Positions 43,789 through 45,363 of a DNA stretch of 45,535 nucleotides are shown piece by piece. The DNA is taken from the IMG/VR virus record IMGVR_UViG_3300045005_000110; one strand, given 5' to 3'. The notes below the pieces were generated by a model. It was not told the DNA's origin. It searched no databases and was given only the letters and a program-made list of their open reading frames with translations. This DNA comes from a virus. The position numbers and the translations under genes were made by a program. Positions within the stretch are counted from its first letter, which is position 1. Every line of letters starts with the position of its first letter.

Positions 43789-44130
43789 TCATTGCATCAG
43801 CAATGCTAACTGGCGCATGTATCGCTCGCTCTGTAGTACGACCTTGAGTGATAGTAGCTGCTGCTTGGTGAGTGGTCGGCCGCTGTCCTTCTGATCCCTG
43901 AGCGAGTGTAGGTAGCGTGTGTCGTGGTCCTCGATGCCGAAAGGACCGGGCAGTTCGGTAGCGAGATCCTCGGCGTTGCTGTCAGCCAGCACAAGCGTGT
44001 CGAACATGCGTTCCACTTCGTCTAGCTGCGAGGCTTTGAGCTTGGGCAGTCGCTGCGCTAGGTCGGCGGTTCGTGCGGCGAGGTGGGGAAGGTTGGTCTT
44101 CCCGTTCGCCTTAGCTTCGTTGATGTCCAT
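43789..44130 (-). CDS. Hypothetical protein (113 aa)
   Basis: Start MDINEAKAN with AAGGAG 6 nt upstream. The 5' region lies inside the 127-bp repeat. Confidence 0.55.
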   Translation of the reverse strand: MDINEAKANGKTNLPHLAARTADLAQRLPKLKASQLDEVERMFDTLVLADSNAEDLATELPGPFGIEDHDTRYLHSLRDQKDSGRPLTKQQLLSLKVVLQSERYMRQLALLMQ

Positions 44131-44229
44131 TGCGATCTCCTTGCACAGCCCTAGAAGGGCGTTGAAACGAAAGAAGCCCGGAAGGGCGATGGGTCGCCGA
44201 TCCGGGCTTGGAAGCGATCCTATGCGATT
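44103..44229 (-). repeat. 127-bp direct repeat, copy 1 (terminator-like hairpin + promoter region + RBS + first 9 codons MDINEAKAN)
   Basis: Identical to 45237–45363. On the minus strand it reads aagcccggatcggcgacccatcgcccttccgggctt-CTTTCGTTT…AAGGAGatcgcaATGgacatcaacgaagctaaggcgaacg. Confidence 0.9.
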
Positions 44230-44745
44230 TCAGACGGTAGCGGGTTGGAACAGGGCGAGGAAGTTCTGGTAGTCGCCGTTGTCCGGGTCGGTCAGCTTGG
44301 TCGTCATGCGGTCGGTGTCGTTGGTCAGGGCGATGGCGTCTTGCCAGAGGTCGTTGTTGTTCTCGCTGGTCACGGTGGCGATGCGGATGTTCTCGCCGTG
44401 CTTCGCGAGGCGAACCCGGTACTTGTAGGTGTTCACCCGGCTGATTTCGATCTCCGGGGCGAGCGCCTTCCGAGCGAGTTCGGCCGTCAGCATCCCGGTG
44501 GCGGCGTAGTAGTTGATGTCCGTCTCACGCCACGGTTCGAGTTCGCAGGTATCGACGTTGCGGCCGTGGATCGGGCAGGCGTCGTTCTGGCCGTTGCACC
44601 GATGGTCCGGGCATTCCATCTTGTCGCCCGTCTTCGGGTCGATGTAGTGGAGTTTGGCGAGCTTGCGCCGGCCGTGTTCGATGAAGCCGATGACGACCGC
44701 GTAGCGGCTGCTGGCCGGGATGCTGACGATGTCGTTGAGGCTGAC
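44230..44745 (-). CDS. Hypothetical Cys/His-containing protein (~171 aa)
   Basis: Probable start MVSLNDIV… at 44745. The track ORF 44230..44931 has an R/G-rich N-terminus. CPDHRCNGQNDACPIHG is present. Confidence 0.5.
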   Translation of the reverse strand, partial: VSLNDIVSIPASSRYAVVIGFIEHGRRKLAKLHYIDPKTGDKMECPDHRCNGQNDACPIHGRNVDTCELEPWRETDINYYAATGMLTAELARKALAPEIEISRVNTYKYRVRLAKHGENIRIATVTSENNNDLWQDAIALTNDTDRMTTKLTDPDNGDYQNFLALFQPATV

Positions 44746-44766
44746 CATGATCACCTTCGGTTGAGA

Positions 44767-44834
44767 AGTAGAGGCGGGGCGGCGGGCGTACCTGCCGTTA
44801 CCCCGACAGACCCTGCTGCCGGACCCCGCCTCTA
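44767..44834. promoter_or_regulatory. 12-bp inverted repeat with a 44-nt G-rich spacer in the leader of the gene 44230..44745
   Basis: gtagaggcgggg at 44767–44778 and ccccgcctctac at 44823–44834. Confidence 0.35.
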
Positions 44835-45094
44835 CACGTCGTTCGTCTTCTTGTCTCCAAAATTGTGCGGTGAATCCGCCGCACAACGCAAGGTTGGTTC
44901 CGTGGTCAGGCACCCCGTTCGGCGTGTCCACGGCTACGCTGAAGCCGCTGCGTCATATGAAGCCGGAAGTGTACATGTTCTGCTCCGTGCGGGTGGCGAG
45001 CCGGTTTAGCGACTGCGGCTCAGGTCGTGCTGGTCACGTCAGCATGGGCCGGGGCTATATGAAGCCTGTCGGGTATTCTCGCATCGGGGGCTAT

Positions 45095-45135
45095 CTCCTC
45101 GCGCGGAAGTAGCTCGCAGCTACTCCTGCGCGGTT
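45095..45135 (+). terminator. Terminator-like hairpin followed by TTGTTGTTT
   Basis: cgcgcggaagtagct-cgc-agctactcctgcgcgg (one mismatch). Confidence 0.35.
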
Positions 45136-45141
45136 GTTGTT

Positions 45142-45261
45142 TCACTTGCTGTCGGTGACTTCGGCTTTGACCACTTCGACTTTCATCACGCCGCTGCCGA
45201 GCGTGTCGTTGATCGCCTCATCGACCGCTTCGCCCGCGTTCGCCTTAGCTTCGTTGATGTC
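45142..45261 (-). CDS. Small protein (40 aa) starting MDINEAKAN
   Basis: Starts inside copy 2 of the 127-bp repeat with an identical RBS and first 9 codons. The upstream part of the track ORF 45142..45378 is leader sequence. Confidence 0.4.
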   Translation of the reverse strand, partial: DINEAKANAGEAVDEAINDTLGSGVMKVEVVKAEVTDSK

Positions 45262-45363
45262 CATTGCGATCTCCTTGCACAGCCCTAGAAGGGCGTTGAA
45301 ACGAAAGAAGCCCGGAAGGGCGATGGGTCGCCGATCCGGGCTTGGAAGCGATCCTATGCGATT
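45237..45363 (-). repeat. 127-bp direct repeat, copy 2
   Basis: Identical to 44103–44229. Confidence 0.9.

Follow-up and report, generated by a model that had tools for sequence, protein, structure and literature searches.

A 127-bp terminator and ribosome-binding-site repeat, probably a recent duplicate, flanks a conserved gene and its leader in an uncultured phage

Results

Organization of the Repeat Locus

We examined a 45,535-nt stretch of viral DNA (IMG/VR record IMGVR_UViG_3300045005_000110; "the window" below means this whole stretch), which carries near its high-coordinate end two identical copies of a 127-bp sequence (R) on either side of a conserved gene, gene B, and its leader. By exact-protein look-ups, the window belongs to JGI metagenome contigs (for example, Ga0438300_000162, 55 kb) with phage-like gene content; related contigs are numbered L001 to L016 here. 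The longest contig that contains gene B measures 125.8 kb. Read along the minus strand, the locus consists of gene X, a 48-nt spacer, the upstream repeat copy (R2), the tail of a short open reading frame (orfC), a 393-nt non-coding region, gene B, the downstream repeat copy (R1), gene A, a hairpin, and an HNH endonuclease gene (Table 1). The interval between the repeats, which comprises the orfC tail, the leader and gene B, is 1,007 bp long. The gene that the original prediction had placed at 44230-44745 is indeed there, with its start moved to 44748 on the minus strand.

Table 1. Features of the repeat locus, in minus-strand order (SD, Shine-Dalgarno sequence; an asterisk marks a stop codon).
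Feature	Position	Strand	Remarks
Gene X, 3' part	45412..45535	-	Full product 60 aa, extends past the window end; small mosaic gene upstream of R2
Spacer	45364..45411	-	48 nt, from the X stop to R2; without homologue in relatives
R2, putative derived repeat copy	45237..45363	-	Flanked by the spacer on the gene X side and by the orphan orfC tail
orfC	45142..45264	-	40 codons: 9 of gene A (via R2) and 31 orphan codons
Leader of gene B	44749..45141	-	About 390 nt, conserved
Leader hairpin 1	45100-45132	-	
Micro-ORF1, MREYPTGFI*	45084..45055	-	GGAGA 8-10 nt upstream of the start codon
Micro-ORF2, MYTSGFI*	44976..44953	-	
Leader hairpin	about 44905-44943	-	
Leader intrinsic terminator	44857-44886	-	TTTTGG tail; predicted
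Long hairpin abutting the SD of gene B	44770-44835	-	
Gene B	44230..44748	-	172 aa, uncharacterised family
R1, native repeat copy	44103..44229	-	From the exact repeat and the alignment with the B-A intergenic region of relatives
Terminator hairpin of R1	44174-44209	-	T-rich tail; small second hairpin also in R1; terminator predicted
SD of R1, AAGGAG	44137-44142	-	
Gene A	43789..44130	-	113 aa
HNH/endonuclease VII-like gene	43458..43021	-	145 aa, PHROG 3322 (E 1e-23); free-standing

The 127-bp Repeat and the Chimeric orfC

The two copies of R agree at 127 of 127 nt, with a start-to-start offset of 1134 nt, and their flanks diverge immediately on both sides (c at 44102 versus g at 45236; t at 44230 versus g at 45364). 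A 44-nt core of the repeat occurs twice in the window when up to three mismatches are allowed (0 occurrences expected from shuffled sequences), and a repeat scan of the whole window gave no third copy; the 20.5-kb locus on L001 likewise holds two. The repeat is real and beyond chance, and the full identity of the copies is as the original prediction had it.

R1 extends from 1 nt past the stop codon of gene B into codon 10 of gene A. On the minus strand, R contains a hairpin (AAGCCCGGA pairing with TCCGGGCTT, followed by CTTTCGTTT), a leader, AAGGAG, and an ATG (at 44130 in R1 and at 45264 in R2) that opens the peptide MDINEAKAN in each case, which again agrees with the anatomy first described. 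Its coding content amounts to 28 nt (the first nine codons of gene A, ATG included, and 1 nt more). The complete 127-nt repeat has a folding energy of -47.6 kcal/mol (z = -2.9). The module had also been credited with a promoter, for which we found no sigma-70 match: a consensus scan returned 0 sites on both strands of 43000-45535, although the promoter type of the host may be other than sigma-70.

By way of R2, orfC borrows the SD, the ATG and nine codons of gene A, and it continues into 31 codons of its own. The peptide MDI(N/D)(E/Q)AKAN is the N-terminus of the gene A homologues, and the only database match to orfC was orfC itself; orfC is an orphan chimera, and we regard it as a by-product of R2. 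Two open reading frames thus share a terminator, an SD, a start and nine codons, as had been noticed, but only one of them is a bona fide gene, orfC being without homologues. We also considered whether orfC might be the remains of a gene into which R had inserted: removal of R2 by hand restores no continuous reading frame across the spacer and the orfC tail in any sensible frame. Similarly, a match between the spacer (45374-45405) and the start of gene A inside R (23 of 32 nt) is no better than the chance matches in the same list.

The TGA stop codon of orfC (45142-45144) lies 9 nt ahead of the first conserved hairpin of the leader. This conserved stop is shared by three unrelated small reading frames: the window has one of 40 codons, L008 one of 42 (stop at 962-964), and L011 one of 37 (stop at 5600-5602); L012 has neither such a reading frame nor the TGA.

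Relatives Carry a Single Copy of the Repeat

Exact-protein look-ups were the only source of relatives of the locus, which lie on contigs assembled with k = 31 or k = 141. Megablast gave no match to 43000-45535 among 50,697 phage records, exact matching of the R hairpin against IMG/VR and JGI metagenome contigs returned nothing, and a search of the same two collections with a gene B profile found no relatives. Only three full-length, diverged homologues of gene B were recovered, with 78, 69, and 64% identity. At the nucleotide level, L012 is 79% identical to the window, L008, L009, and L010 are 74-77% identical, and L011 is 72% identical.

The relatives align without a break over window positions ~43577-45145, that is, over the leader, gene B, R1 and gene A, and the alignment is bounded by the stop codon of orfC on one side and ends before the HNH gene on the other. 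Wherever a contig reaches far enough, it holds a non-coding region of ~390 nt, gene B, an intergenic region of ~105 nt, and a homologue of gene A, all contiguous, and gene A directly follows gene B in every relative recovered through gene B. In L012, L008, L009, and L011, the B-A intergenic region and the beginning of gene A match R1 in a base-by-base alignment; in this alignment the hairpin stem, the SD and the ATG are conserved and the loop is variable (the N-terminus of the gene A product in L012, for example, reads MDIDQAKANGRTNLP). An R-type direct repeat is absent from these relatives, which have the single native copy only, and none contains a counterpart of R2: homology on that side begins only at ~45145.

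Because R1 matches the B-A region of the relatives, and the relatives lack a second copy, we take R1 to be native and R2 to be recent and lineage-specific; with 0 differences in 127 nt, R2 has the appearance of a recent duplicate confined to this lineage. In the same way, the leader and gene B are an ancestral segment and not a foreign insertion, since the leader, gene B, the intergenic region and gene A are syntenic in four diverged relatives. This speaks against the idea of an inserted cassette, which had been put forward together with a proposal to compare cassette content among related genomes; in that comparison, the block is present in the relatives and the second repeat is missing. Relatives with diverged repeats at the same place, which the original prediction had named as the case against itself, were not seen, all relatives being single-copy.

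Contig Variants in Sister Assemblies

The arrangement of the window recurs in L001 and L004. The Logan contig L005 (k = 31) is 100% identical to the window over 10.3 kb. L002, which comes from a different sample, carries X-R-orfC-leader-B-R behind a wholly different upstream sequence and stops inside the second R, so that this order of elements is found in two upstream backgrounds (L001 and L002). The junction between R and the orfC tail is present in contigs of three JGI samples. L005 starts exactly 30 nt (k-1) upstream of the boundary between R and gene A; therefore, there is a branch in the reads at that base.

Contigs of two further kinds are also present. L007, from yet another sample, reads X-spacer-R-A, without the orfC tail, the leader and gene B: it is 100% identical to window positions 45535-45237 and 44229-43319, joined by one R, and it has one single-nucleotide difference further upstream. 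L003 is 1,261 bp long (1,134 + 127), has R at both ends and is a self-looping, "circular" contig, and L006 begins at the first base of R and runs into gene A. All three forms (segment present, segment missing, and loop) thus exist as contigs, and L007 and L003 fit the deletion and the circle that recombination between the two copies of R would be expected to give, as far as contigs can tell. The notion of an exchangeable unit survives in this form (a repeat-flanked segment with L007 and L003 as alternative arrangements), without the foreign insertion that had come with it.

The Leader of Gene B

The region upstream of gene B is conserved (81% mean column identity in an alignment with the relatives), and RNAalifold found compensatory changes in 17 of 105 pairs. 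A plus-strand terminator had been proposed in this interval; the sequence in question forms a conserved hairpin with which the minus-strand leader opens on its 5' side (leader hairpin 1), and the genuine intrinsic terminator, as predicted, is the minus-strand one listed in Table 1. The stem of this terminator differs in sequence among lineages, with the pairing kept in every one of them.

Two micro-ORFs precede the terminator. The peptide of micro-ORF1 reads MRQYPSGFI, MREYPSGFI, or MREYPTGFI among the relatives. The micro-ORF2 peptide is identical in all four lineages, every difference being synonymous (TAC/TAT, ACT/ACG/ACC, TCC/AGT/AGC, GGC/GGG, and TGA/TAA at the stop codon), and over both micro-ORFs nearly all differences are synonymous, serine switches between TCC and AGY among them. 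Both micro-ORFs end with GGC TTC ATA and a stop codon (Gly-Phe-Ile), in which TTC ATA is invariant. The conserved rare ATA codon prompted a search for tRNA genes in the window, which found none, and a search of 43400-45535 against Rfam families gave two chance-level matches only (E 0.1-0.4, far below gathering scores). From these sequence features, the leader looks like a candidate translation-dependent leader-peptide attenuator of gene B.

The leader also bears some likeness to a type III toxin-antitoxin locus of the ToxIN kind, with a twice-repeated box (GGCTTCATAT), an intrinsic terminator, and then a 172-aa protein. Unlike in such loci, the boxes are the ends of the two micro-ORFs, and there are no tandem RNA repeats. 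We rejected this candidate: the gene B product combines an SH3-like barrel and a Cys/His motif, shows no ToxN- or Kid-like fold, and has no Pfam or PADLOC match.

The Gene B Protein

Gene B has no match in Pfam, PHROG, or PADLOC. A profile search places it in an uncharacterised family with 67 cluster representatives, whose members share an N-terminal domain of ~95 aa with a nearly invariant CPD-x-RC...CP-x-H motif; many members of the family consist of the N-terminal domain alone. A structure model built from a deeper alignment (pLDDT 95) depicts the N-terminus as an SH3/Tudor/KOW-like barrel and the C-terminus as an alpha/beta domain, and the Cys/His motif is probably zinc-binding. No similarity of the gene B product to recombinases, transposases, integrases, or nucleases was found. 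An autonomous mobile element (an insertion sequence, an integron cassette, or a homing-endonuclease unit) was considered and dismissed, as gene B is without a mobility enzyme and always next to gene A, and the HNH gene is outside the repeats.

Neighboring Genes and Other Repeats

Gene A is followed by a perfect 15-bp hairpin and then, 330 bp past gene A and outside the repeats, by the HNH gene. The patch that contains the HNH gene (43021-43578) has a G+C content of 49%, versus ~57%, and resembles an insertion when compared with L012, in which homology ends at 43579 and restarts at 43021. The HNH gene is absent from the corresponding position in L012 and in the L008 lineage; in L008, L009, and L012, a DUF6428 gene follows gene A instead.

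On the other side of the locus, the same gene X, 100% identical in nucleotide sequence, stands in another context on L016 (positions 1-420), from the same sample as L003. L016 and the window diverge inside the stop codon of gene X (TAA versus TAG), and past gene X, L016 has a terminator hairpin and then three tandem repeats of ~63 nt that contain TTCATAGCGTTGTACC. This 16-mer also lies just 3' of gene A in the window (43721-43736), with its orientation relative to the genes reversed. Homologues of gene X were tried as a guide to the ancestral junction; they stand in other contexts, followed by a generic hairpin module or by other genes, and are uninformative on R2.

A multi-copy intergenic module is found in this phage group between consecutive small genes. 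It reads TGACGCA-n5-GAGACAACCC-loop-GGGTTGTCTC, followed by GGAG and an ATG, and there are five copies of it within 3 kb of L001 (6264-9129), just past the high-coordinate end of the window. It is also found, with variable loops, in L011, L012, L013, and L015; the window and R contain none.

Elsewhere in the window, an exact 26-bp tandem duplication (39355-39406) near the 3' end of an ADP-ribosylglycohydrolase-like gene (39307..40437, minus strand) shifts the reading frame; if one copy is taken out, a YKCxDCG motif like that of the L008 homologue reappears at the C-terminus. A k = 31 Logan contig, 100% identical, has the duplication too. Two tandem arrays lie near the low-coordinate end: one in 1-544, where the G+C content is 45% (273 nt x 2.0 copies, 87% matches), and one at 1436-2314 (252 nt x 3.5 copies, 78% matches).

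Discussion

We put at about 0.6 the probability that the locus has undergone a recent duplication of the module that holds the terminator of gene B and the SD and start of gene A, a duplication that has left the leader and gene B repeat-flanked, deletable, and possibly re-insertable. R1 would be an ordinary intergenic region, in which the terminator of gene B is followed by the SD and the start of gene A. R2 would have arisen 1,134 bp upstream, in this lineage only, precisely on the mosaic boundary that separates the variable region with gene X from the conserved leader-B-A block. Homologous recombination between the two copies would delete the 1,007-bp segment and yield X-R-A together with a 1,134-bp circle, which could re-enter at R. 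A perfect homology of 127 bp is far above the minimum for RecA- or phage-type recombination, and repeat-mediated deletion is general in lambda and T4 genetics. A repeat-mediated presence/absence polymorphism of the segment is probable.

Two histories would lead to this state. In history (a), R would have been copied within the genome, which takes two illegitimate junctions, and deletions between the copies would then have recurred. In history (b), a genome of the X-R-A form, without gene B, would have gained the circle or undergone an unequal crossover, and the only illegitimate junction would be that between R and the orfC tail. The contig variants fit histories (a) and (b) equally, and any order of events (deletion versus re-insertion) is one that we infer.

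The rearrangement is ordinary in kind for phages, and there is no new mobile element. Segmental (dispersed) duplication with repeat-mediated deletion is reported for phage "ORFanage" deletions (PMC4503421). The present locus is similar in having one native and one derived direct copy, of which one is orthologous to the single copy of the relatives, and in having a variant with exactly one copy and without the interval (L007, otherwise identical at the contig level). It differs in that the derived copy makes an in-frame chimeric reading frame and sits exactly on a mosaic boundary.

Several points weigh against a duplication followed by recombination. The duplication accounts for neither the 48-nt spacer nor the 31 orphan codons, and the plain insertion of R into a gene does not fit them either. 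The circles and the recombination are inferred from the forms of contigs. In addition, the length of the repeat, 127, is also the final k of the assembler (the JGI workflow runs metaSPAdes with k = 33, 55, 77, 99, and 127), L007 could be a path through the R vertex of an assembly graph in a low-coverage sample, and neither a larger-k assembly nor long reads for the same strain were found.

The coincidence of 127 with k leads to the alternative that survives best, one that we still consider unlikely: the junctions would be real and the printed order merely one traversal of a k = 127 loop, with X-R-A genomes in the sample and, beside them, other molecules with R-orfC tail-leader-B-R (a tandem, a circle, or another genome). 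De Bruijn graph assemblies, such as those behind the circular contigs of SPAdes, are known for terminal overlaps of length k and for loops. Since R is as long as the final k, it is a single vertex of the final graph, and because of this a contig that reads X-R-orfC or X-R-A is not proof of the order on one molecule. Three contigs bear the signature of such a vertex: L003 overlaps itself, being 1,261 bp long with the same 127 nt at either end, L006 starts at R, and L002 is cut short in the second R, all of them as expected of assembly loops of length k. The identity of gene X in L016, in another context and from the sample of L003, further indicates that mosaic strains co-occur. Unlike a plain assembly loop, however, the repeat lies inside 55-kb contigs between four different, real flanks, and the branch point between R and gene A is reproduced at k = 31. 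The junctions X-R, B-R, R-orfC tail, and R-A must all be real, since each 128-mer of a contig must exist in the reads. As the interior of 1,007 bp forms a single edge without branches, a molecule with R-leader-B-R must exist, whatever lies upstream of it. The same traversal is also seen in several samples and with two upstream backgrounds. We went through the possible artefact sources of a repeat exactly k long (bubbles due to insertion polymorphism, gap closing, pseudo-reads from lower k, overlap trimming, and error correction), and none makes the junction between R and the orfC tail, for which no artefact mechanism can be named. We treat the equality of 127 and k as a coincidence of roughly 1 in 100; it makes us less sure of the connectivity, and of L007 being a real genome, and takes nothing from our confidence in the repeat itself.

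The original prediction had compared the repeat with the promoter early stem-loops (PeSLs) of T4-type phages, and the corresponding alternative is a mobile regulatory cassette, in which R would move genes among phages via mini-circles and the leader and gene B would be imported cargo. In T4-type phages, PeSLs carry a consensus sigma-70 early promoter and exist in ~50 similar, non-identical copies per genome, which cluster in hyperplastic regions (Arbiol et al., 2010, PMC2839356; PMC4122927). The likeness is considerable: R is an intergenic module that spans an upstream stop codon, a terminator-like stem-loop (in R1 a strong hairpin with a conserved stem and a loop that varies among relatives, and with predicted terminator activity), and the next SD and start codon, as PeSLs do (PMC2839356); in both cases, direct repeats surround non-essential genes in a variable region, and deletions and small circles are expected. 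Contigs with the segment, without it, and with the loop exist, and if an R-leader-B circle entered an X-R-A recipient, one illegitimate junction would be enough to give exactly the structure seen here; the mini-circle model of PMC2839356 is the counterpart of history (b). In contrast to PeSLs, there are here two copies in place of dozens, identical throughout, with 28 nt of coding sequence and without a sigma-70 promoter match, and the circles are putative. Moreover, the flanked gene is conserved and syntenic and not an ORFan: gene B is never found away from gene A, and the leader-B-A order is kept in all relatives, each with one copy of R. The multi-copy hairpin module of this phage group (GACAACCC and GGGTTGTC) has a different sequence, which is absent from the repeat, and is a better analogue of PeSLs than the 127-bp repeat is. 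A recombination-type mechanism thus remains a plausible part of the comparison, the promoter and the copy number being the parts that fail, and we hold the cassette alternative to be quite improbable. We would be similarly doubtful of a more far-reaching proposal, in which active excision and re-integration by way of the conserved B-A terminator region would turn the 1,134-bp unit (R, the orfC tail, the micro-ORF leader, and gene B) into a mini-circle that comes and goes.

The least probable alternative, to which we give very little credence, is a duplication kept by selection for a regulatory effect: R2 would end transcription coming from gene X, and the reading frame driven by its SD and ATG, which ends 9 nt before leader hairpin 1, would affect folding of the leader or translation of the micro-ORFs. 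The stop codon shared by the three unrelated reading frames of the window, L008, and L011 would accord with such a role, as would the absence here of the generic hairpin module that trails gene X homologues elsewhere; against it, L012 lacks both the upstream reading frame and the TGA, three reading frames would fall in a common frame about once in nine cases by chance, and the zero divergence between the copies is uninformative on selection.

As a warning case, the locus shows that an exact repeat as long as the k of the assembler should not be taken for biology until spanning reads have been checked. Apart from the repeat, the micro-ORFs of the leader, placed before a terminator, and the uncharacterised family of gene B are more unusual content than the repeat itself. 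If the forms are real molecules, the locus would be a cleanly resolved case from nature in which a recently duplicated terminator and SD module makes a conserved gene deletable and possibly re-insertable, and it would mean that PeSL-style shuffling needs no dedicated promoter element. Should the mini-circle be active, a self-regulated gene (two GFI-stop leader peptides, an attenuator, and gene B) would pass, during co-infection, to relatives without it, for instance the X-R-A form, and PeSL-like shuffling would take place in an unrelated, uncultured phage group through a promoter-less terminator/SD module.

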